DNA from: a virus
Lineage: Duplodnaviria; Caudoviricetes
DNA length: 64,000 bases
Direction: 5' to 3' (one strand)
IMG/VR virus record: IMGVR_UViG_3300023218_000062
Part shown: positions 48,795-60,667 of the stretch, in pieces
How the letters are laid out: each line of letters begins with the position of its first letter
Numbering within the stretch: position 1 is the stretch's first letter
Position numbers and translations under genes: made by a program
The notes under the pieces: generated by a model
Seen by the model: the letters and a program-made list of their open reading frames with translations, nothing else
What the model was told of the DNA's origin: nothing
Database searches by the model: none

Positions 48795-49430
48795 ATGACA
48801 CAGACAATTAAAGACTTTGAACAAGATGTTTCTGGAAAAGATATTTATCTTATTGGTGGTGGAACATCATTTAAACCAGAAAAGTATATCCCCTTGCTCC
48901 CTAAATCACAAGTCATTTGCATAAATTCAGCGCTAGAAGATTTTGATAATTGTCTTGCTGCTACATGGTTTGACGATACATGGATGAAAAGTAACATTAA
49001 ATTATTAAAAGAAAAAAGGCATAAACATGGAATTAAATTTACTAAAGGTGAAAAACGACTAGAAACTAATAAGGGTCGAGATTATTTGTCTATTCACAAT
49101 GCTAGTACCAAGGATTTTAGCGTAAACAAAGAAAAATATGATGTATGTGGAAACAATACAGGATCCTGTACTATTCATCTTCTTGATCAATTAGGTGTAA
49201 ATACAATTTATCTGCTGGGATTTGACTGTCGTGAAGAAAATGGTAGATCTCATTATCACAATAGATATAACAAATATGTCAAACAACAATCATACAATAG
49301 AAGTTTTTTACCTAATTTCGAACAATTATCTAAGCATATAAAAAATTCTACAGTTGTGAATTTATCTGAAAATACAAAAATTAAAAGTTTCAAAAGAGCT
49401 AGAATAGAAAGTATTTTAACATATAAATAG
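48795..49430 (+). CDS. DUF115/MptE-like nucleotide-sugar-related protein
   Basis: IYLIGGGTS, VICINSA, LGVNTIYLLGFDC, SHYH. Confidence 0.7.
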   Translation: MTQTIKDFEQDVSGKDIYLIGGGTSFKPEKYIPLLPKSQVICINSALEDFDNCLAATWFDDTWMKSNIKLLKEKRHKHGIKFTKGEKRLETNKGRDYLSIHNASTKDFSVNKEKYDVCGNNTGSCTIHLLDQLGVNTIYLLGFDCREENGRSHYHNRYNKYVKQQSYNRSFLPNFEQLSKHIKNSTVVNLSENTKIKSFKRARIESILTYK

Positions 49431-49449: not shown

Positions 49450-51426
49450 TTGATGGCAACTATAAGATATAAATGCGATGCCTGTTTGCGAGAAGTAGAG
49501 CTTTTAGAGAACAAAACAGGGTTAACTACTCTATCAAATTGTATTATTACAGAGAATTGTAGGGGGTCATTATTCAAAATAAGAAGAAATAATCGTTCTC
49601 GTGTCAGCTTTGGTGAGGAAGATATTGATTTGAATAACAACCTTATGAATCGTAAGGAACGAAAAGTATTTTTTCCCTTTTCCAAAGATATTCCATCAAA
49701 ACGCTGGGTTGTTCGACATAACTTAGGTTCCTTTCCGGCTATTTCTGTCTTTATTGAAACTGATGATGGGATTAATATACGAGAAGCAAATAAGTCAGAA
49801 TATACTAGAAGAGATATCGACAAAAATACTTTAGAAGTTGTATTCAATGCAAACCAGACTGGTAAAGTTCATGCAATATCTAGAAGTATATCTGATCAGG
49901 ATATACCTCAATCTACGCTCGTAGAAAATACAATAAACATATCTCCTAATGGCACTCTTTCTATTGCAGTATTATCCAAAGCATTCGGGGAATCTTCTAT
50001 TGATCCTCAAAACCCTATAGATGTTAGATTTGATGTATCATTAAAAGAACCTAATGAAGAAGAAATTTTCTGCGTAGAAGAATTTAAGAATGGGCTTCGT
50101 TCCCCGTGGAGCGATTATCAGGCTATGTCTTTTAGAAAACGTAGAAATTATATTGTCAAAACAGTAAATTTATTGGATCTTAAAGTCATACAAGAAAGAT
50201 ACAATTCTTTAACTGAAATACCCGAATTGACTGAATTTAAGTTTAACAGTATTAGTTATAATGGATCTGTTTTTAAACCCATCCGATCAAAAAATGCTTT
50301 AATTTTGTTATCTTCTCCACCCTATACTAAATCAGATAAAATTATGGATAAAATTATAGATTTAGGTGAGCGAAATGAAGAAACAAGCGGACGAAAATAT
50401 ATTTTTTCTAATGGAAAGTTATTTGCAGTTGAAGATGATATAGAAAGAGTATATCCCCCTATAGAAAAAGATGATATTCTTTTTAAGGTCGATGATTCTT
50501 TTGGAATTGCACCTACACCTACTCCTACACCATCAGTATCTGAGAGTGCTACACCTACACCTACACCTACTCCTACACCATCAGTATCTGAGAGTGCTAC
50601 ACCTACTCCTACACCATCAGTATCTGAGAGTGCTACACCTACACCTACACCTACTCCTACACCATCAGTATCTGAGAGTGCTACACCTACTCCTACTCCT
50701 ACACCATCAGTATCATCAAATCTTTGGAGTCCAGCAGATACAACAACCTCTCTTTGGTTAGAAGGCTCAAATAGTAGTTCTTTTATATTAGATGGGAGTC
50801 TAATTGATTTATGGAAAGACTTATCCACTAACAATAGAGATGCATCACCTCCTTCTGGTAGACCTGCATATGATGCCCAAAATGGCGCTGTTGTATATGA
50901 TGCAAGTGAGCAATTACTAGCTCCACAATTTAATTTCTCGGAAGGTGTTGTTGCAATAGTAGCAGAACAAACGAACCCGTCGTCGACGCAACAAAATACT
51001 ATAATACGAGATGATAGTTCAGGAAATTGGAGACATCTTTTAAGATGGGTAAATCCTTCATCAGCGAGCGACTTTAATGCATTTATACAAACTGATTTAG
51101 CAGAGGGTATTGCTACCGTGACCTTGCCAAATGATCGAATTTTACTTATTGTTCGATGGATGGCAAGTGATGAATTACATATAGTACGAGAATCAGGCAA
51201 TATTATATATAATGAAACCCTAATTGGAAATAACTTATTACCAGCAAATGATATCAGCATTGGATCACACCCTACTGGTATAAATGGATTAAGAGGTAAT
51301 TTACACGAACTTATATATTTCCCAATGGATTCAGATATAGAAAAAGTCGAAGGTTATCTAGCGCACAAGTGGCAACTCACTAATAGATTGCCCACAAGCC
51401 ATCCGTATAAAAACAGTCCGCCTTGA
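49450..51426 (+). CDS. virion structural protein with a Pro/Thr/Ser linker and a C-terminal LamG-like domain
   Basis: HNLG..P.ISV, (TP)n-SVSESA repeats, LWLE...WKDLS...[13 protein letters not shown]. Confidence 0.7.
50511..50713 (+). repeat. coding tandem repeat ([12 protein letters not shown])n
   Basis: unit acacctactcctacaccatcagtatctgagagtgct with variable acacct copy number. Confidence 0.95.
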
Positions 51427-51447
51427 CTTTAATTATCAAAAAGTAAA

Positions 51448-51477
51448 AATCCTTCCTTCAAGGAGAAGAGTTGTCAA
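51448..51477 (+). mobile_element. IS200/IS605 right-end-like relic
   Basis: AATCCTTCCTTCAAGGAGAAGAGTTGTCAA. Confidence 0.4.
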
Positions 51478-51488
51478 AAGTGTAGAAC

Positions 51489-52451
51489 TTAAACACTAAA
51501 AGGATATTTTATGGCTGGATCAGGAGTATAATTTTCCAACTTAAAATCATTTATGGTAATATTGTTTTCCACCTCTTCAAGTGAATTAACGTTTGGGACC
51601 TTTAATATAGGAGAGTTTTTTGGGGCTCTATTCATTTGTTCTTCGAAAAGATTTACTTGATTTTCATATATATGAATATCCGACATAAAATGTGTAAACG
51701 TACCTGCCTTCAGACCTGTAATAGATGCAACGATTTTTAACAGTAAGCAATAACTAACAATATTGAACGGTATTCCAATAGGAAAATCACATGACCTTTG
51801 GGTCATTGTTATGTTCAAATAGTCGCCTAATATACTAAACATATAAATCATGTGACAGGGAGGTAGGGCCATTTTATCAAGTTCCCCGGGATTCCAATGA
51901 TTAACAATTAATCTTCTATTATCATTTCTTTTTTTTAATTCTTCAATACAATTTTTAAGTTGGTCAATAGATTTTTCATTTGAGCTTTGCCATTTTCTCG
52001 CTTGAACTCCATAAATTCTGCCTAAATCATCTTTCCCCCTTCTATTAGGATTATTTAACCAGTAATCATTTTCATTAGCATTAGAATCCCAAATTTTGCA
52101 TCCTTCTTTGCGAAAATCTGCTGCATTGTCATAGCCTTTTATGAACCCTAAAAGCTCTGCTATTGCCGGTGTAATATTCATTTTTTTAGTAGTTAATAGA
52201 GGAAACTGGTCGGTGTTACTAAGATTAAATTGCATCATATCCCCGATAATGGTAAGACATTTACTATTTGTTCTATTATTAAATTTCCATTGGCCTTCGT
52301 TTAGTATTTTTTTTCCAACCCGTAGATATTCTTTGTCATATTTTTTCATGCATTTTTCTATATCTGCTTTATAGCCGGTACTGCAATCATAGCATTCTCT
52401 TCCTACTAAGTAATAATCCATCTGTGTAAGACATTTACTTTCTTCTTTCAT
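51489..52451 (-). CDS. thyA: thymidylate synthase
   Basis: FPLLTTKK, AELLGFIKG, DLGRIYG.Q.R, ALPPCH, QRSCD, GIPFNI, HIYENQ; likely start MKEESK at 52451. Confidence 0.95.
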   Translation of the reverse strand: MKEESKCLTQMDYYLVGRECYDCSTGYKADIEKCMKKYDKEYLRVGKKILNEGQWKFNNRTNSKCLTIIGDMMQFNLSNTDQFPLLTTKKMNITPAIAELLGFIKGYDNAADFRKEGCKIWDSNANENDYWLNNPNRRGKDDLGRIYGVQARKWQSSNEKSIDQLKNCIEELKKRNDNRRLIVNHWNPGELDKMALPPCHMIYMFSILGDYLNITMTQRSCDFPIGIPFNIVSYCLLLKIVASITGLKAGTFTHFMSDIHIYENQVNLFEEQMNRAPKNSPILKVPNVNSLEEVENNITINDFKLENYTPDPAIKYPFSV

Positions 52452-52559
52452 AATAAATTTCCTTTTATTTTTAAAATATATATTGATATTATATATGGAT
52501 TTAAAGAACAGCACAAGAGCAATAATATAAATATCATACATATAAAATAACATATCCCC

Positions 52560-54977
52560 ATGAAAGAAGGTTTGAACATAGATTTTAATACTAGAGTTTT
52601 AATAACAGAACACAACATTGACGAAATACATAGTGAAGGAGATGTTCTGCTAGATAAATCAAATGCCATTCATTCACAAAATATGGCTCGGGCTATTTCA
52701 AGAGCATTGTCTAGAGAACCTAATTCTTTTATTCATAGAATAGCTTTCGGAAACGGTGGTAGTTTCACTGATGCAGGAGAAACTACTATAATAAATCTAC
52801 CTAATGATGGTACTAGGGGAGATGGATGGGAATCTAGGCTATACAATGAAACATATTCAGAAATAATAGATGAAAATAATATTTTGGTGGGTACAGATCC
52901 GGGGTCATCTGGACCAAATTCTACTAGAATCGGTGGTGGATCAGTACCCAGTGAAGACCCTGAAGGGACCGGGGTTATATCTCTCGAAGTAGGTAGGAAA
53001 TCTAATATAATCGCTACTATGTTTTTAAATAAAAGTGAGCCTATTAGTCAATTGAGCCAAGGAACGATTGACACGGAGATAATTGCGGAAGAAAAATCTT
53101 TTGAATTTGATGAATTAGGTTTTTATACGACAGGCCAGCCTGCATCGCCTGCTCCAGCATCTTCTGTTATTGATGTTGGGAATAAAACATCGGAAGACCC
53201 TATCCCAACATCCATGTTGGGGAGCCAACTAAGTTTAAGTTATGAGATAAATGGTAATGAAAAGCAAACTGTATTTATAATCCCAAACATAGGTTCCGGG
53301 CCGCAGGGAGAAGTAACTTTCGGAGATTTGGCAGAAGGTATCAACACTGGTTCATGGTTTTCTAATAGTCCCGGCGATGATAGTACCACATTGATTAAAG
53401 TAACAATAACAGATCGTACTCCGGGTGCAGTATATCCAACTATTGCCGGTTCAGAAACGTTTGGGTTTTTGGTTTTTGAAAGTCTAACTGCCGGTGCAGG
53501 TAATACATTAAAACTTAATTGTAATTCAATTGGATCAGATATTTTATTTAATCTTACTGGAAATTGTGCGAAAATTGATGCCTCTATAAATACAGGGGTG
53601 GACGCTGGGGTTGCCAATGATGCGGAAAATCCTCAAAATGAAAGAGAGCGATTACTGACTCATCTTACATTTTCGCCCATTTTGAAAAAAGAAAATAGGG
53701 TATTAAAAATAGTATATACTCTCACCGTTTCAGTTTCACAAACCGGTGATTGTGTTCCAAACATAGAAAATAATATTCCCCCTATATCTCCAACCCCTAC
53801 ACCATCGGTATCTGATAGTGCTACACCTACCCCTACACCATCGGTATCTGAGAGTGCTACACCTACTCCTACACCATCAGTATCTGAGAGTGCTACACCT
53901 ACACCTACACCATCAGTATCTGAGAGTGCTACACCTACACCTACTCCTACACCATCAATGGGAGTAATATCTGAGAGTGCTACACCGACTCCTACACCAT
54001 CAATGGTGGGAGTAATATCTGAGAGTGCTACACCGACTCCTACACCATCAGTATCTGAGAGTGCTACACCTACACCTACACCTACACCTACTCCTACACC
54101 ATCAGTATCTGAGAGTGCTACACCTACACCTACTCCTACACCTAGCCCTAGTGCTGCAGTTCCAATGATATTAACTATGGACACCACCCTAAATCCAACT
54201 GGCACCGATGTAACATTGCCAATGAAAGGGCCGGGGGATGTTAGTGTTGACTGGGGTGATGGTACTGTAGATAGTTTCCAAAATAATACTGTAGACAGCC
54301 TGTTACAGTCCAGTCCACATAGTTATCCAGTTGATGGCGTATATACTATTACAATTACTGGAACATTAACCAAATTTGGTGATTTCGCTATAGATATGAA
54401 TGGAATTACCGGTGTTAATTCTTTCGGAGAATTAGGGATTACTAGCTTAAATGGGGCTCTATATAATTCAATAGAATTAACTACTTTACCAGATAACATT
54501 CCATCCTCTGTTACCGACATGTCATTCATGTTTTTGGTTGATCCAGATAAGCCCAAGAGTTTTAATATTAATATAAATTCATGGGATGTTAGTAATATTG
54601 TCAATATGGCTGGTTTATTCATGGGATGTATTTCGTTTAATCAACCATTAAATAATTGGGTCACCTCAAATGTTACTGATATGTCATTTATGTTTAATGG
54701 CGCAAGTTCCTTTAATGGTGATATTACAACATGGGATACATCATCTGCGAATAACATGACTACTATGTTCCAAAATGCTGAAGTCTTTAATCAAGATATT
54801 TCAAATTGGAATGTTTCTAATGTTACTAACATGGATTTTATGTTCTGGACTGCTTCAGCATTTAATCAAAATTTAAGCGGATGGTGTGTTACTAATATAA
54901 CATCGGAGCCAACTGGATTTAGTGATAATTCCCCCTTATCAACAGGAAATAAACCTGTTTGGGGAACGTGTCCTTAA
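52560..54977 (+). CDS. virion (baseplate/fibre) protein with PT repeats, PKD-like and DUF285 domains
   Basis: HSQNMARAISRAL, IAFGNGG, FDELGF, THLTFSPILK, PT repeats, VDWGDG, WDVSNIVNM repeats. Confidence 0.75.
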   Translation: MKEGLNIDFNTRVLITEHNIDEIHSEGDVLLDKSNAIHSQNMARAISRALSREPNSFIHRIAFGNGGSFTDAGETTIINLPNDGTRGDGWESRLYNETYSEIIDENNILVGTDPGSSGPNSTRIGGGSVPSEDPEGTGVISLEVGRKSNIIATMFLNKSEPISQLSQGTIDTEIIAEEKSFEFDELGFYTTGQPASPAPASSVIDVGNKTSEDPIPTSMLGSQLSLSYEINGNEKQTVFIIPNIGSGPQGEVTFGDLAEGINTGSWFSNSPGDDSTTLIKVTITDRTPGAVYPTIAGSETFGFLVFESLTAGAGNTLKLNCNSIGSDILFNLTGNCAKIDASINTGVDAGVANDAENPQNERERLLTHLTFSPILKKENRVLKIVYTLTVSVSQTGDCVPNIENNIPPISPTPTPSVSDSATPTPTPSVSESATPTPTPSVSESATPTPTPSVSESATPTPTPTPSMGVISESATPTPTPSMVGVISESATPTPTPSVSESATPTPTPTPTPTPSVSESATPTPTPTPSPSAAVPMILTMDTTLNPTGTDVTLPMKGPGDVSVDWGDGTVDSFQNNTVDSLLQSSPHSYPVDGVYTITITGTLTKFGDFAIDMNGITGVNSFGELGITSLNGALYNSIELTTLPDNIPSSVTDMSFMFLVDPDKPKSFNININSWDVSNIVNMAGLFMGCISFNQPLNNWVTSNVTDMSFMFNGASSFNGDITTWDTSSANNMTTMFQNAEVFNQDISNWNVSNVTNMDFMFWTASAFNQNLSGWCVTNITSEPTGFSDNSPLSTGNKPVWGTCP
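53791..54150 (+). repeat. coding tandem repeat ([10 protein letters not shown])n
   Basis: same nucleotide unit as 50511..50713, plus two SMGVISESA variants. Confidence 0.95.
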
Positions 54978-56602
54978 TCGTTATATTTATTTTCTACTCG
55001 TTCATCTTTGCCATAATGTGATATTCTATGGTGGGTGATAGGTGACGCTAATATACATCCAACAGTAAGCTTATTTTCTCTTATTGCAATTTGTGCTTCG
55101 GCCATTAAAGCGCTTTCTGACATTTTTTTATGTGTGTAACAATATTTAATGAATTTATCATTTCCATTTTTACTAAAAAGTATAGGCCAATTACAGTAAT
55201 AATATTCTCCTATATTATATGCTAATCCCCGATAACAATTACTGTAATATAGTTTGGTTCTCATTTCTGGAATATTTTTAAGATATAGAAATTTTTCTTT
55301 TCTGGCGGGGTCTAAATTGTACCATGCCCAATTAGTATGATTGTCACCAAAAAATTCTGAAAAGGTTAATTTTAAGTAATCTAATTCATTTTCTTCTAAT
55401 ATAGAAATTGCTTTGTTAAATAACTGTTTATCATATTTTTTAAAACCTGCATTGCATGTTTCTCCTTCTTTTTCCCTTCCATTAACTAACATATCATCTT
55501 CAAAAAAAATCATATACGAATGTATAGATTTTGCAAAATGTTCGGCTGCATATTGTCTCCCCCCAGTAATTCCTATGTTATTAAATTTATACTCTGTTAA
55601 ATCATATTCTCTTATTATTTTATCATATTCTTTATTAAGTTCTTTATTAGTTGAATTATTTAATAGGTATTTCGGAGATTTTTTGAAAATTTCGGGGAAA
55701 TTTGTTTTAAAAGCAGATAAGCATTTTAATAACTGTTTTGGTGCATTAAAAGTCAAAAAGTATAATGCTAGTTTATTATCATTTTCTTGTTTTCTATTTT
55801 TTACTCTTTCAAAATATGAATTAATTAGTCCATTAGATTCTATCATTTGAACATTAAACAAGTGCTTATGAGTATAACTTATAATAGTGAACACAGACTC
55901 CTCAGTTCCCATGTAGCCCTGTTTTAAACTATCTTCAAGGGTTCGGTAGTATACATCATTAACCTTGTTTACAGCTTCTTTGGTGCCTCCAAAGAATCCT
56001 CCACGACATACATATTTGGTATCTTCACCAGCAAGTTTATTCATTCCTTCTTTTTTAAATCCATGGACTTCATTTTGCCCATTATATGGGAATGCTAGAT
56101 ATAACATTTTGTTCTTTTTAACGTCTTCTATGAGTTTTTTGTCAAATTGATCAACACTAAAATATGATTGTATATTGACGGTATTACTTATTCCTGCATC
56201 TATCCAAAAGAAGTATCTAGAATTAAAAAAGTTGTTTAATACACTATCATTAAGCTTAAATTGCTTTGACATTACTAGTGGGTTATAATATTCTAGTTTT
56301 GCTTGGGGGCTTTGTTCTAGCCACCCTGCCTGTGAATACCAGTTTTTATCATTTCGTATTTTATCTACCTGTTCTTTAAACGGAAAGTGTATATTTCTTA
56401 CAATAACTTTAGTGTTATCTGGCTTTCGATGTTTCCATATAAAATCTGAAACCTCTTTATCACAATAAACCACTAAATTAATATCCTGATCCAGCAATTT
56501 TTTAAACGCTTCGAGGTACTGATTCATAGACCGTTTAAAATTATCTTTTAGATTATCTCGGTTCAAATTATATAATGCAGTAACAAAGGTTATATCATTC
56601 AT
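54974..56602 (-). CDS. HtrL/WlaTC-like glycosyltransferase fused to a GT-A domain
   Basis: TFVTALY, SKQF.L, FWIDAG, GGFFGG, GTEE; second domain NIGITGGRQ, FFEDD. Confidence 0.75.
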   Translation of the reverse strand: MNDITFVTALYNLNRDNLKDNFKRSMNQYLEAFKKLLDQDINLVVYCDKEVSDFIWKHRKPDNTKVIVRNIHFPFKEQVDKIRNDKNWYSQAGWLEQSPQAKLEYYNPLVMSKQFKLNDSVLNNFFNSRYFFWIDAGISNTVNIQSYFSVDQFDKKLIEDVKKNKMLYLAFPYNGQNEVHGFKKEGMNKLAGEDTKYVCRGGFFGGTKEAVNKVNDVYYRTLEDSLKQGYMGTEESVFTIISYTHKHLFNVQMIESNGLINSYFERVKNRKQENDNKLALYFLTFNAPKQLLKCLSAFKTNFPEIFKKSPKYLLNNSTNKELNKEYDKIIREYDLTEYKFNNIGITGGRQYAAEHFAKSIHSYMIFFEDDMLVNGREKEGETCNAGFKKYDKQLFNKAISILEENELDYLKLTFSEFFGDNHTNWAWYNLDPARKEKFLYLKNIPEMRTKLYYSNCYRGLAYNIGEYYYCNWPILFSKNGNDKFIKYCYTHKKMSESALMAEAQIAIRENKLTVGCILASPITHHRISHYGKDERVENKYND

Positions 56603-57393
56603 ATATCAAGTTCCTTGATGATTTTGTTGTACGGTAAATTATAATAATTGTAATAAACACCTATGGCCTCGCCGTTCACAATGTTTTTAGGGTTATTATA
56701 TCCGGCTTTAGCTAATGAAATTCCCAGTTCGTAGCTTTCTCCCCACGGTACACAATCACTTTTTTGTAATATATAATTCAATCTTCTTAGTTCACTTGCA
56801 AACAACTCTATTTTATTATTTTCGTTTTTTAATATAAAAAAATGTTCACTGGGTAACCCTACATTATAGGAATCTGGAGGATTTTCTTTTTTTTCATACA
56901 CTCGTTTTTTATGATTATATATTGAATTTTCTCTATCCCATTCTTGACCTAATGTATCTCCCATTCTTGCACCAACCATATCGTATTCGCCTTTTATAAG
57001 TGTTTCATATATGAAATTTTCGTTTTCGTCTGTTAATTCTAATGCAGAATCGCAATCTATAAAAAAGACGATATCATACTGTTCTATGTTGGGGATATTT
57101 TCAAAACATAGAATTTTTAAAGTGCAATTGAATTTTTTAGGACCATTAATTGCTCTTAAACGTTCTTCATGTTCTGGGATATCAGTAAAAATCTTTAAAT
57201 CTTCTGTGATATTATTACGCGATTTTACTCTGTTTGATTTAATAATATCACCGGGTTTGTTGGTTGATACTAATATATCATGCTTGGTTTTCTGCAATAA
57301 AGATTCTATTAATTGGTTACAATAACTAATATATCTGCCATCAGATTGGTCCACACATAATAGAGTGAACAGTAGTTTACCGTTGGTGTTCAC
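56599..57393 (-). CDS. putative GT-A glycosyltransferase
   Basis: FNCTLK, VFFIDCD, WGES. Confidence 0.6.
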   Translation of the reverse strand: MNTNGKLLFTLLCVDQSDGRYISYCNQLIESLLQKTKHDILVSTNKPGDIIKSNRVKSRNNITEDLKIFTDIPEHEERLRAINGPKKFNCTLKILCFENIPNIEQYDIVFFIDCDSALELTDENENFIYETLIKGEYDMVGARMGDTLGQEWDRENSIYNHKKRVYEKKENPPDSYNVGLPSEHFFILKNENNKIELFASELRRLNYILQKSDCVPWGESYELGISLAKAGYNNPKNIVNGEAIGVYYNYYNLPYNKIIKELDI

Positions 57394-57414
57394 ATTATAA
57401 TCCTGTAAATCAAT

Positions 57415-58062
57415 TTAAAAATCATAATCGAATATATCAATTTCTTTCTGGCAATTTTCTTTAATCATATTATATGTCTCTTCTTCATAATGTTCTCTAT
57501 AGTCTTTTTTGTGTGATAAATCTACTATAGTTTTAATTTCAGTTCGTGTGTGTATTTTTTTGTGTGTCCCGTCTATTCCAAATGTTTTAAGAAAATCTTT
57601 CATTTTATTATAATTATTATAGTTAATATAGTAGTTTATAAGATCTTCTTGTGGATCAAAAATTTTCAATTTTTTATTTTGCGCTCTATACGGTATATAG
57701 GATTTTAATAAAAATCTTTTTAGGCTTACATCTTTTTTTAGCAATTCTTCGCGCGATAATTTTTTAAAGTTTTTAAAATAAAAAAAATTTTCTTTAAAAA
57801 ATCTTTTTTCATCTAATGCATGATAATAATAAGAAATCGCATGTTCCCATGGATTTCTTATTATACAACTTACTAACCAATTATTTATTGAAGGTGCTAT
57901 TAGCTTTTTGTAAATTATTGGGTTGTTTTTTTTCAGAAACTCTATACCAGTATGCATCGGAAAAGTATGATAGTTCATCGTTCCACAATTTACATGGATG
58001 CTACCAGACGCGGTTTTAGGCATTTCAAAATGTAAATGTTTTCGTTGTTCGTTAATAACCAT
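57415..58062 (-). CDS. sulfotransferase family 2 protein
   Basis: HFEMPKTASGS (5'-PSB), IIRNPWEHAISYY (3'-PB). Confidence 0.85.
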   Translation of the reverse strand: MVINEQRKHLHFEMPKTASGSIHVNCGTMNYHTFPMHTGIEFLKKNNPIIYKKLIAPSINNWLVSCIIRNPWEHAISYYYHALDEKRFFKENFFYFKNFKKLSREELLKKDVSLKRFLLKSYIPYRAQNKKLKIFDPQEDLINYYINYNNYNKMKDFLKTFGIDGTHKKIHTRTEIKTIVDLSHKKDYREHYEEETYNMIKENCQKEIDIFDYDF

Positions 58063-58873
58063 CTATTATATCTTTCAATGCATCTTTTAACGATACTTTT
58101 TGTTTATCATTCTTCTTATGTATTCCCATATAATCAAAATAACATTTTTTTATTTTATAATTTTTTAATATATGAGTGAATATAGATTCTTCAGTTACTA
58201 ATACATTGTTATCTAATAAGAAATCTAATTCATTATAAAAATGGTTATGGATATTCATGTTGTCTACTTTGAACAATCCCCCTATGGCTGAAGGTTCTTC
58301 AATATAACTAAATTTTGTATCATATATTTTATAATTTTTATTATTTGGACGATTGTGATAGAAAAAAATTGATGAATATTTCGTGTCTAATTTAAGTAAT
58401 TTTTCACCATTGAGAATATCTAAATCTATAAAGTTATTTCTTTCTTTAGTATTTTTAACATTATTCAGGGGAAATACGTCCCCATGTAGCAAACCCGAAT
58501 CGATCCAAAAAGTACATCCATACTCCCTCATCCATATCAACTTTTGATAAATAAGTTCAAAACACCGATTAGATAATCTTACAGGGTTATAGTTTTGTAT
58601 TAATTCTATATTATTTCTAAGATGTTGTATTTTTCTGTGATAATCACTTTTACACAAATCTCTAAATACAAATTCTATATTAAAATTTTTTAAAAGATAT
58701 TCGTGCCCCGACCGTATTAATTCATATGTATGGTGATCTGTGAAACAGTATATGTTTATGTCTGGGCAATACTTGGCGATAATGTTCAACGAACCACAAT
58801 ATCGCGGCAGCCTCCCCAATCTCCCACCTAATTTACTTTTATCGGTGTCATATATACAAGTTGCTATTTTCAT
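58052..58873 (-). CDS. HtrL-like putative glycosyltransferase
   Basis: KLIWM, FWIDSGL.HG, IGGLF, TEE.I (parallels 54974..56602). Confidence 0.6.
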   Translation of the reverse strand: MKIATCIYDTDKSKLGGRLGRLPRYCGSLNIIAKYCPDINIYCFTDHHTYELIRSGHEYLLKNFNIEFVFRDLCKSDYHRKIQHLRNNIELIQNYNPVRLSNRCFELIYQKLIWMREYGCTFWIDSGLLHGDVFPLNNVKNTKERNNFIDLDILNGEKLLKLDTKYSSIFFYHNRPNNKNYKIYDTKFSYIEEPSAIGGLFKVDNMNIHNHFYNELDFLLDNNVLVTEESIFTHILKNYKIKKCYFDYMGIHKKNDKQKVSLKDALKDIIDGY

Positions 58874-58948
58874 TTCTTATACTCATATATTTTTTACTAG
58901 TCTACGTCCTTTCATTAGGAAATTTTATTTTTATGGGAGTGATATCGT

Positions 58949-59230
58949 TTAATAAGTAATACTTATTAGCAGTACATTATTTCTTTTTAATGTCTTTCTT
59001 ATTTTGTCTAAACAATTTTGCCTTTGTTTATCTGAAAGACTTTTTATTTGTTCTGATTTGGGTTTTAATGTTTTGGTTTTTCGTATGTTTATCAGGTTTC
59101 TGGTTTCAACGCTATTTCCGATTTTTATCAACAAGTCTTGGTGAACACTATTATATTCAGTTGACAAAAGCTTCCCGCCTTTTGATTTTATTATTTTATC
59201 TACTTCATCAATCGTCAACTTTTGGGGCAT
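58949..59230 (-). CDS. basic hypothetical protein (endonuclease N-terminus-like)
   Basis: KLTIDEV..II.SKGGKLLSTEY. Confidence 0.45.
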   Translation of the reverse strand: MPQKLTIDEVDKIIKSKGGKLLSTEYNSVHQDLLIKIGNSVETRNLINIRKTKTLKPKSEQIKSLSDKQRQNCLDKIRKTLKRNNVLLISITY

Positions 59231-59236
59231 AATTAA

Positions 59237-60667
59237 TCATCCGTCTACGTTTTTAGTAACCTTATCTAACCACCCGCCAGATTTGCTGTGGGGCCATACA
59301 GTATACGTGCTTGGGGCTACACTTGACAAGAAAATGAACCGATAATCAATAAACTCGTTACCGCTGGTCACATATTTCTTGAATTGTGGTCCTGATAAGT
59401 CTTTTCTATGTATTTCATTTCCATCTACATCATGTGCGCCCACAAAACAGAAATCTATGTCATCTAATACTTTACCATTATCAAATGCCGAAGGAAATTC
59501 ATTTTTATGTACACATACTCTTACGTCATTTGATCGCGCAAACGATTCTTTCCATTCTTGTTCATTTGAATATGGTATGTTAACCGGAGGTTCTTTTTGA
59601 TCCAGTGTTGGTTGCTGTACACCCCTATGCTCGAAACTAATTCCTGCATACTCTTCATATTGTCGTAATGTCCTTTCATTACCAAATCCATATTTACCAA
59701 AATCAATCTGATTGGGGTCTTCACCATTCATTCCAAATAAAACCCTATTTCTTTTGTGGGCCATGTTATTTCTTTCCACCCAATCCTTTTCAACTTTTCC
59801 TTTCTTTTTATTTATAGTTGTATGATCATCCCACACTTTAGTTCTACCTTTTCTGGTATATTCATGCCATATCAGTAACTTATGTGGTGTAAACAGATCG
59901 TATCCATGAGTATATGCTCTAGCAGATATTGAGATTTCTTCTCCATGAAAGAAACAGAATTTATCATGTTGTACATCTTCTGCAAACGATCCGTCAGCGA
60001 AACAAAAATGGCCAGAATAAAATCTAGCACGTTGAGGTCTATCACGCTCTTTCCAATTTTTCATTTCAGATGGTATAAAGAACACTGCACCTTCTGGTAT
60101 AAACCTATCAAAGTTTGTTTGCCATGGTATTTGTACTCTTCCATTAGGATCATTTTCAGGATTATACGAAGGTATATAGCCCGTTAAAATAGGTTTTGGA
60201 GTATCCGAAGTTCTAATACTTTCTAACATTTCTATTAATTCTTTATCCCAATATTCTATAAATCTATGATGGGAATCCAACTGTAACGTATATTTTTCTC
60301 CATTATATTGTTGCTGAATTAAATTTCTAGCCCAGCAGGTTCCTTTAGTTTCTGTATAGTTTAGGTCTATTAAATCAACGGATGCTTCATTTTTATTAAG
60401 TTCTATGATATTAACTTCTTTTTTTATATCATCAATATCGATAAATTTATATGTTCTATAACTCCTTACATCAAAATCTGCATCCAAAAAATCATCTATA
60501 CTTTGCTCGTCACCATGCTGCCAATTTACCATTATATGTAAATTTTCTGGATATACACTATTACATATCATATTTTCAAGCGTGGGTATTAACTCGGGGT
60601 CTCTATAGCTTGCTATTTGAACAAATATTGTATCTTCCATCGTATTAAACGCACCATCTGTATACAC
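59237..60667 (-). CDS. GT60-like polypeptide GlcNAc-transferase
   Basis: IFVQIASYRDPEL, GTCWAR, LQLDSHHRF, FYSGHF.F, FHGEEISISAR.YTHGYD. Confidence 0.85.
   Translation of the reverse strand: MYTDGAFNTMEDTIFVQIASYRDPELIPTLENMICNSVYPENLHIMVNWQHGDEQSIDDFLDADFDVRSYRTYKFIDIDDIKKEVNIIELNKNEASVDLIDLNYTETKGTCWARNLIQQQYNGEKYTLQLDSHHRFIEYWDKELIEMLESIRTSDTPKPILTGYIPSYNPENDPNGRVQIPWQTNFDRFIPEGAVFFIPSEMKNWKERDRPQRARFYSGHFCFADGSFAEDVQHDKFCFFHGEEISISARAYTHGYDLFTPHKLLIWHEYTRKGRTKVWDDHTTINKKKGKVEKDWVERNNMAHKRNRVLFGMNGEDPNQIDFGKYGFGNERTLRQYEEYAGISFEHRGVQQPTLDQKEPPVNIPYSNEQEWKESFARSNDVRVCVHKNEFPSAFDNGKVLDDIDFCFVGAHDVDGNEIHRKDLSGPQFKKYVTSGNEFIDYRFIFLSSVAPSTYTVWPHSKSGGWLDKVTKNVDG

Follow-up and report, generated by a model that had tools for sequence, protein, structure and literature searches.

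A candidate mucin-type O-glycosylation cassette of jumbo phages and its association with Thr/Pro-rich tracts in fibre-type proteins

Glycosylation of phage particles is known from a few cases and matters for immune recognition, stability and adsorption. Virion glycosylation by mycobacteriophage enzymes has been described, as has the initiation of mucin-type glycosylation by protist enzymes of family GT60 (PMC8724618, PMC3769586). The characterised GT60 enzymes are polypeptide alpha-N-acetylglucosamine (GlcNAc) transferases acting on Thr-rich mucin domains or on hydroxyproline of Skp1 (PMC8724618, PMC3769586), in agreement with the first-pass annotation of the DNA studied here, in which GT60 members were said to glycosylate Thr or hydroxyproline of proteins. 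The present study deals with a 64,000-nucleotide stretch (the window) of the IMG/VR virus record IMGVR_UViG_3300023218_000062, which comes from a jumbo phage. In this window, a gene for a GT60 enzyme (P0008) lies in one block with genes for a tandem glycosyltransferase (P0004) and for several putative tailoring enzymes (P0005, P0006 and P0007), beside two genes for fibre-type proteins (P0001 and P0002) with long tracts rich in Pro and Thr (PT tracts). Based on the results of this study, the cassette probably serves, in the cytoplasm, for the mucin-type O-glycosylation of the fibrous proteins of the phage that encodes it. No publication was found in which a cassette based on GT60 is connected with PT tracts in phages.

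The protist GT60 enzymes (the mucin polypeptide (pp)-alpha-GlcNAcT of Trypanosoma cruzi, and pp-alpha-GlcNAcT2 and the Skp1 enzyme Gnt1 of Dictyostelium) are similar to P0008 in the Pfam domain PF11397, the D-S-H motif and the lack of a ricin-type lectin domain (PMC8724618, PMC3769586), and also in the pairing with Thr/Pro-rich mucin-like tracts. However, the mucin-type enzymes of protists are Golgi membrane proteins, whereas P0008 is encoded by a phage, is predicted to be soluble and cytoplasmic in a bacterium, and has an extra C-terminal domain of ~130 aa. In the Skp1 pathway of Dictyostelium (PhyA, Gnt1, PgtA), the GT60 step of Gnt1 is followed by the bifunctional two-domain PgtA, as GT60 would here be followed by P0004, but a prolyl 4-hydroxylase is part of that pathway; no PF13640 domain was found in four complete cassette-bearing phage genomes, a scan in which the genome of the window was not included. 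Clusters that build O-antigen or capsule on a lipid carrier have membrane-bound enzymes, an initiating transferase, an exporter and a polymerase. The enzymes of the window had no membrane-like segment, and the representatives of the 20 largest clusters of genes from the variable slot described below included no polyprenyl-phosphate transferase, flippase/ABC exporter or polymerase. The serine-rich-repeat adhesin systems of Gram-positive bacteria consist of GtfA/GtfB plus elongating glycosyltransferases. They are similar in the cytoplasmic O-GlcNAc initiation on long Ser/Thr-rich repeats and in the variable GT-A-type elongators encoded alongside, but their initiator is a GT4 enzyme (GT-B fold) and their substrate is exported by the accessory Sec system, for which there are no genes here. 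Cytoplasmic glycosyltransferases encoded by the virus likewise decorate its own structural proteins in chloroviruses and mimiviruses and in mycobacteriophages (Freeman et al. 2023, cited in PMC12619734); however, the enzymes belong to other families, these systems are not known to have a GT60 initiator or PT tracts, and the acceptors are C-terminal extensions of capsid and tail-tube proteins or N-linked capsid sites. The 'moraphage' paper deals with another lineage (PMC12619734).

A precedent is the Xanthomonas phage XacN1, which carries the cassette and in which ORF334 is the ortholog of P0008 (58% identity). Virions of XacN1 contain at least two Schiff-positive glycoprotein bands (PMC5852040, Supp. 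Fig. S4), and Yoshikawa et al. 2018 suggested that the phage glycosyltransferases ORF328 and ORF334 make these glycoproteins (PMC5852040). The GT60 family, the partners ORF330 and ORF332, the PT tracts and the wider distribution were not recognised in that proposal (PMC5852040). In XacN1, PT tracts of 50-200 aa were found in ORF369, ORF370 and ORF372, which lie beside tail sheath genes.

By its sequence, P0008 can be regarded as a solid case of a true GT60-family polypeptide GlcNAc-transferase homolog. It matched PF11397 ('GlcNAc', the Pfam family of CAZy GT60) over profile positions 1-351/352 (E=8e-75, 252.9 bits against a cut-off of 21) and phrog_24687 (E=2e-161), and the residues D131-S132-H133 (QLDSHHRF) were invariant in 20/20 aligned homologs with 57-95% identity. 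These residues fit the DxH-type metal-binding motif that belongs to the catalytic domain of GT27 and GT60. PF11397 was the sole Pfam match, and a C-terminal ricin-type lectin domain, the absence of which separates GT60 from GT27 (PMC8724618), was not present; the residues after ~347, which make up the extra C-terminal domain, form a clade-specific conserved region. Sequence/profile searches of PDB with P0008 gave no meaningful match. Homologs at E<=1e-10 included more than 7000 proteins from phages and bacteria, many of them on contigs of 240-345 kb. On IMG/VR contigs, at least 578 homologs were found by an alignment-based scan, whereas a scan of viral contigs with a single protein returned no close relative.

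The co-occurrence of GT60 and PT repeats across phages, proposed in the first-pass annotation as a check, turned out positive in both directions and in several genomic contexts. The survey comprised 87 GT60 loci among the matches listed, which were dereplicated into 55 clusters at 85% GT60 identity; the counts for all locus sets (GT60, PT-repeat and collagen) hold among the matches listed. In the forward test, a PT-rich open reading frame (ORF) was present in the locus in 32/55 clusters and within two genes of the cassette in 26. A PT ORF directly adjoined the cassette in 18 clusters, against 9.2 expected from within-locus permutation (p~0.001). Outside the synteny typical of XacN1-like phages (40 clusters), all of the 25 clusters with a PT ORF had one within three genes (25/25), usually directly upstream of GT60 and on the same strand. 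The density of PT ORFs was 75 per Mb in GT60 loci and 21 per Mb in 119 control loci fetched by a collagen-like Gly-X-Y DNA pattern (3.6 times; p=7e-10), and no homolog of GT60 or P0004 was found in these controls. In the reverse test, loci were fetched by the pattern (ACNCCN)x5 alone, and 8/120 of them contained a GT60 homolog against 0/119 controls (Fisher p=0.007), distant homologs with 23-37% identity included. Near the cassette, the tracts were carried by at least seven unrelated N-terminal protein families, so that the tract and not one protein family is the common element. Thr made up 0.3-0.49 of the residues of the tracts, and the longest reached ~1380 residues (in a 1618-aa protein of locus L081). 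In a complete phage genome of 297 kb (G003), four of the five PT genes were located within 12 kb around the cassette. PT tracts occurred in 17/431 called genes of a complete XacN1-like phage (G001, 316.8 kb), seven of them around the cassette when the contig ends were joined; this number indicates that PT linkers are a general building element of this phage group.

Several features of the PT proteins outside the window may be added. The PT genes of G001 include giants of 3257 and 3404 aa, as well as four paralogous genes in a run at 172-179 kb. Searches of PHROG and Pfam with ten PT-tract proteins of other loci gave mostly no matches. A hydrophobic N-terminus was found in only 4/51 PT proteins; strongly hydrophobic N-termini belong to one PT family downstream of the cassette (L030 16786-18351, L026 15435-16994, L048 14000-15193 and L049 14721-15734), and these four may be membrane proteins rather than virion parts. 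A 949-aa PT-tract protein encoded three genes upstream of GT60 in L081 (1619-4465) ends in a papain-like domain (Peptidase_C1), and ORF382 of XacN1 is also a C1 peptidase.

In the window itself, the two proteins with long Thr/Pro/Ser repeats reported in the first-pass annotation were borne out by repeat analysis with TRF. Arrays with 36/48/84-nt periods, the main ones of 83-100% identity, lie at 50510-50702 in P0001 and at 53796-54144 in P0002 and encode [12 protein letters not shown] units. The full PT(S) tracts extend over nt ~50500-50750 (aa ~350-434) and nt ~53770-54250 (aa ~405-562), respectively, and of the remaining ORFs of >=150 aa in the 64-kb window, none passed the PT-rich filter. 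A stretch of 68 nt is identical between the two arrays, which also have the 36-nt unit in common, and the 68-nt identity suggests recent homogenisation or gene conversion between the linkers. Thr codons in the arrays are mostly ACA/ACT and Pro codons CCT/CCA.

Both proteins are likely to be located in the virion, as judged from homology and gene order. P0001 consists of a conserved N-terminal domain (aa 1-~345, beginning with CxxC...C...C), the tract and a distal domain (aa ~440-658) that matched phrog_10356 'virion structural protein' (E=8e-14). All homologs that have a distal domain also have a PT tract, which begins at aa ~337-349 (in most cases 346-349); beyond it, the tips vary (PQQ_2, SGL propeller and others), and 'anchor-only' forms stop exactly where the tract would be expected to start. 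A constant N-terminal domain followed by a tract and varying tips is the pattern of exchangeable receptor-binding fibres. The homologs XacN1 ORF370, ORF372 and Xoosp13_332 directly adjoin tail-sheath genes, the last being annotated as a host-specificity protein. A Foldseek search with the N-terminal domain of P0001 led to sequence homologs that were then confirmed by tblastn; its fold matches to Ig-like domains and some phage tail proteins were weak (Z<=6.2) and were not used as evidence. P0002 has a conserved N-terminal domain (aa 1-~404, phrog_11259), the PT(S) tract and a C-terminal DUF285/PARCEL repeat domain (aa ~640-805). Its N-terminal domain is the counterpart of XacN1 ORF329 (48% identity), which closes a block of baseplate genes, and the gene is convergent to the cassette in all XacN1-like loci. 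Residues 1-200 matched proteins in 90 jumbo phages, including the 'baseplate protein' of Turkey5 and the product of a RaK2 gene that lies among those for virion structural proteins. A sequence/profile search of PDB with the N-terminal domain gave no meaningful match. In RaK2 (L375, 38.6-47.0 kb), the order is thymidylate synthase, tail protein, homolog of the P0002 N-terminal domain, NUDIX and tail sheath, with no GT60 cassette; the cassette therefore looks inserted into an older block of structural and nucleotide-metabolism genes.

The N-terminal half of P0004, the conserved partner of the GT60 enzyme, matched HtrL_YibB (PF09612; E=5e-14, 52.9 bits against a cut-off of 24.1), and the AlphaFold model built from a 32-sequence alignment (pLDDT 89.9) has two GT-A domains, the C-terminal one with an E368-D369-D370 motif. 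The model of the N-terminal domain superposes on E. coli HtrL (P25666) with a TM score of 0.71 by the hit, and the whole model resembles LH3, K4CP, Mimivirus R699, LARGE1, COLGALT1 and Dictyostelium PgtA. These are bifunctional enzymes by which glycans on proteins or polymers are lengthened. A sequence/profile search of PDB with P0004 gave no meaningful match. The family of P0007, a protein that had no match in Pfam by itself, aligned with the P0004 family in hhalign (99.4%, E=1.3e-21, 236 columns) and has the WIDAG and GGxFGG motifs in common with it. P0006 had no match in Pfam even at E<=10; in the atlas it reached a feature score of 0.96 and a TM score of 0.69 to clusters with 75-99% of members carrying PF03567. 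It contains the motifs PKTASGS and RNPWEHAISYY, which we take to fit the two motifs (5'-phosphosulfate and 3'-phosphate) that bind the sulfate donor PAPS. P0005 is probably a GT-A-type transferase, but this should be taken as a lead only: D113-x-D115 was invariant in its family (11 surveyed loci, including XacN1 ORF331) and its atlas neighbours carry GT8, GT6 or Nucleotid_trans on a minority of members, and both the PDB profile search with the family and the hhalign comparison with P0004 were negative. The enzyme block of the first-pass annotation (two HtrL-like glycosyltransferases, a GT-A protein, a sulfotransferase and a GT60-like enzyme) can accordingly be kept for GT60, for the HtrL-type P0004 and P0007 and for the sulfotransferase-like P0006, with the GT-A assignment of P0005 less secure. 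A further candidate, w211, is encoded on the same strand as P0001, 20 nt upstream of it, and outside the range of that annotation. It matched the Pfam family MptE-like below the cut-off (E=6.7e-4), and the structure search of the atlas gave TM scores of 0.81-0.82 to MptE-like/WaaZ_KDO_III clusters (the fold of Maf and WaaZ-type transferases); w211 is retained beside P0001 homologs in four other loci (L003, L004, L010 and L019). No membrane-like segment was found in the enzymes of the window (max KD19 <=1.07).

GT60 was accompanied by a P0004 homolog in 49 of the 55 dereplicated clusters, and between the two lie 0-7 genes, which fall into 41 sequence clusters. The P0007 family is the commonest occupant of this variable slot (21 loci), and P0006 is a singleton among 133 slot proteins and the only sulfotransferase among 46 surveyed slots. 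The cluster representatives include glycosyltransferases (GT2, GT7C, GT10, GT11, GT25 and PLOD-type), a Nucleotid_trans protein, methyltransferases (a CmcI-like sugar O-methyltransferase and FkbM), a carbamoyltransferase and a polysaccharide pyruvyl transferase, and the slot also holds enzymes for sugar precursors (a UDP-galactopyranose mutase and a HAD phosphatase fused to a sugar nucleotidyltransferase). Viral glycans can be tailored; those of the Mimivirus fibrils, for example, are pyruvylated. A megablast search of the phage collection with the cassette gave no match. In the closest relative (L006), GT60 is 94-95% identical and both flanks are 95-97% identical to the window, and positions 57380-58912 of the window (P0006 and P0007) replace 2.3 kb of L006 (5498-7767) with an endonuclease-like gene (REase_MTES_1575, 550 aa) and a pyruvyl-transferase fragment. 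The swap junction is marked by P0009, whose sequence agrees to 97% with the N-terminal 93 aa of the 550-aa ORF of L006 and L007; the endonuclease-like gene is intact after GT60 in L013 and L017. Such a clean swap between flanks of 95-97% identity points to a recent exchange of tailoring enzymes, and their frequent swapping suggests selection for glycan diversity.

GT60 was also found outside phages, in a context independent of theirs. A scan of the genome collection gave 46 GT60 loci from bacterial genomes and metagenome-assembled genomes among the matches listed, and in Burkholderia, Paraburkholderia, Cupriavidus, Ralstonia, Trinickia, Achromobacter and Dyella the gene lies inside type VI secretion system (T6SS) clusters with TssE, TssF, TssA, PAAR, Rhs and VgrG domains. 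The T6SS homologs (L334, L336 and nine other Burkholderiales loci, L329-L363) are 43-46% identical to P0008. All of the VgrG spikes that adjoin GT60 (11/11) end in Pro-rich Thr/Ser repeats of the types (TP)n of up to 116 aa, (TEPPP)n, (SEEPPP)n and (PEPST)n. No paper on GT60 genes beside VgrG in T6SS clusters was found in the literature.

The following mechanism could be suggested for the cassette. Late in infection, soluble P0008 would put the first sugar, most likely GlcNAc from host UDP-GlcNAc, on Thr (perhaps Ser) of the PT tracts of P0001, P0002 and other PT-linker proteins. P0004 would then add the next one or two sugars, and strain-specific slot enzymes would extend or decorate the chain, in this phage P0007, P0005 and P0006 (the last by sulfation with host PAPS); w211 may add a further sugar. 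Once glycosylated, the tract could serve as a stiff and hydrated spacer, with the conserved domain that anchors the protein in the virion at one end and an exchangeable distal domain for binding at the other. The proposal of the first-pass annotation, a possibly sulfated glycan coat on mucin-like fibre stalks, gains support from the solid GT60 assignment, the co-occurrence, the enzymes without membrane segments, the glycan-tailoring slot and the combination of glycoproteins and PT tracts in XacN1.

Several observations weigh against this mechanism. The tie between GT60 and PT tracts is one of genomic association, and the donor sugar of every enzyme is a prediction. Within +/-10 kb, 23/55 GT60 clusters have no PT ORF. 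XacN1-like phages have many PT genes far from the cassette, which neighbours DNA-replication genes there, and PT linkers are common in fibre proteins and present in 13% of control loci without GT60. Moreover, the loci in the survey are related to each other by phylogeny, those of the control set are shorter, and the PT filter was set arbitrarily. That P0001 and P0002 are located in the virion is drawn from PHROG and annotation matches and synteny, the model of the P0001 N-terminal domain is poor (pLDDT 58), and the glycoprotein bands of XacN1 are not tied to ORFs (PMC5852040).

Some of these observations would fit an unlikely alternative, in which proteins are glycosylated but the PT tracts are plain flexible linkers and the acceptor is elsewhere, for example a capsid or tail-tube protein or a host protein. 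The clusters without a nearby PT ORF and the PT linkers that exist without GT60 agree with it, and where virion glycosylation is known in phages, its targets are capsid and tail-tube proteins, at their C-terminal extensions (Freeman et al. 2023, cited in PMC12619734). However, PT genes adjoin the cassette beyond within-locus chance and are concentrated at it in G003, all VgrG beside GT60 carry Pro/Thr/Ser tails, and the substrates of the GT60 enzyme of T. cruzi are Thr-rich tracts (PMC3769586). There is also a slim chance that the cassette remodels a surface glycan of the host (lipopolysaccharide (LPS) core, O-antigen or capsule) during infection, for example as a barrier to superinfection, and that the PT proteins are mere neighbours in a hypervariable accessory region. 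The HtrL/YibB and WaaZ-like families stem from LPS-core contexts, sulfo-, carbamoyl-, pyruvyl- and methyl-transferases decorate polysaccharides too, and glycosyltransferase clusters of jumbo cyanophages were taken as surface-polysaccharide modifiers in a review (PMC7824862). The characterised members of the family of the conserved first enzyme, however, act on polypeptides; the enzymes of the window are without a membrane segment, the 20 largest slot-cluster representatives lack the lipid-carrier machinery named above, and the two-way link to PT tracts across unrelated families and T6SS loci would stay unexplained.

It is improbable that hydroxyproline in the PT tract, and not Thr, is the acceptor, as in the Skp1 Gnt1 route or in plant extensins. 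The cytoplasmic GT60 enzyme Gnt1 does act on hydroxyproline (PMC8724618), but no 2OG-FeII_Oxy_3 domain (PF13640) occurred in the four complete cassette-bearing relatives, a scan that did not extend to the window and its genome, and the tracts are dominated by Thr, which together make this route less likely. Glycosylation of phage DNA (base hypermodification) against restriction is very improbable: although the cassette of XacN1-like phages has genes for DNA polymerase, RNase H and NUDIX proteins to one side and ThyA and RNR to the other, it lies among genes for PT proteins and not replication genes in the 40 other clusters, and the GT60, HtrL, GT10/11 and sulfotransferase families are not known as DNA glycosyltransferases. 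Glycosyltransferases by which phages hypermodify DNA are on record (Pyle et al. 2024, cited in PMC12619734), but no hydroxymethylase was seen here and the ThyA of the window is canonical (PF00303, E=3.8e-88; best PDB matches all true thymidylate synthases; Asn of the PFNIVSY motif kept), which argues against a hydroxymethyl-base route to DNA glycosylation.

As the survey shows, a mucin-initiating enzyme family of the protist type is common in large phages, where it is linked to Thr/Pro tracts and lies beside rapidly exchanged tailoring genes. If glycans are attached to the tracts, many uncultured jumbo phages would have fibres with diverse strain-specific glycans, sulfated in this phage, and models of host range and stability would need to include glycans; phages would also become the source of a compact set of soluble enzymes with which designed Thr/Pro linkers could be O-glycosylated in bacteria. 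As XacN1 is in culture, the idea can be tested directly. The association with T6SS clusters suggests that bacterial spikes undergo the same chemistry. It is possible, although tentative, that GT60 and the tandem GT-A enzyme form a general coating module for fibrous and spike parts of contractile and other phage-derived machines, in hundreds of large phages and in Burkholderiales T6SS (VgrG Pro/Thr/Ser tails), with the glycan diversified by rapid exchange of tailoring cassettes (sulfo-, pyruvyl-, carbamoyl-, methyl-, fucosyl- and Galf-type). If true, a bacterial-cytoplasmic counterpart of eukaryotic mucin-type O-glycosylation would be widespread and under arms-race selection.

The features of the locus are listed in Table 1. 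The window is AT-rich (GC ~32%) and has 11 tRNA genes, and its P0001 protein is on record on a contig of 246,638 bp. The nearest cultured relatives of the phage are the Xanthomonas phages XacN1 and Xoo-sp13 and the Stenotrophomonas phages CM1 and RAS14. The enzyme block had been placed immediately downstream of the two PT genes in the first-pass annotation. The block from P0004 to P0008 (54974-60667) does adjoin P0002, but it lies on the minus strand, convergent with P0002, and the ThyA gene separates the two PT genes.

Table 1. Genes of the candidate glycosylation cassette and its neighbourhood in the window
Feature	Coordinates	Strand	Basis
w211, putative MptE-like (Maf/WaaZ-type) glycosyltransferase	48795-49430	+	Pfam match below cut-off, atlas structure search
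P0001, fibre-type protein with PT tract	49450-51426	+	TRF repeats, phrog_10356
ThyA, canonical thymidylate synthase; intervening gene, outside the system	51489-52553	-	PF00303
P0002, fibre-type protein with PT tract	52560-54977	+	phrog_11259, TRF repeats
P0004, tandem two-GT-A glycosyltransferase	54974-56602	-	PF09612, AlphaFold model
P0005, probable GT-A (lead only)	56599-57393	-	DxD motif, atlas neighbours
P0006, putative PAPS-type sulfotransferase (Sulfotransfer_2-like)	57415-58062	-	atlas, motifs
P0007, stand-alone HtrL-type glycosyltransferase	58052-58873	-	hhalign
P0009, 93-aa 5' remnant of endonuclease-like gene	58949-59230	-	homology to 550-aa ORF
P0008, GT60 enzyme, presumed initiator	59237-60667	-	PF11397

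By comparison with homologs, the likely true starts are the ATG at 60640 for P0008 and the ATG at 49453 for P0001. Residues 2-20 of the ThyA ORF form a hydrophobic stretch within an N-terminal extension, and homologs of ThyA align only from residue ~40-72, so that the true start is probably an internal Met (MKEESK...).

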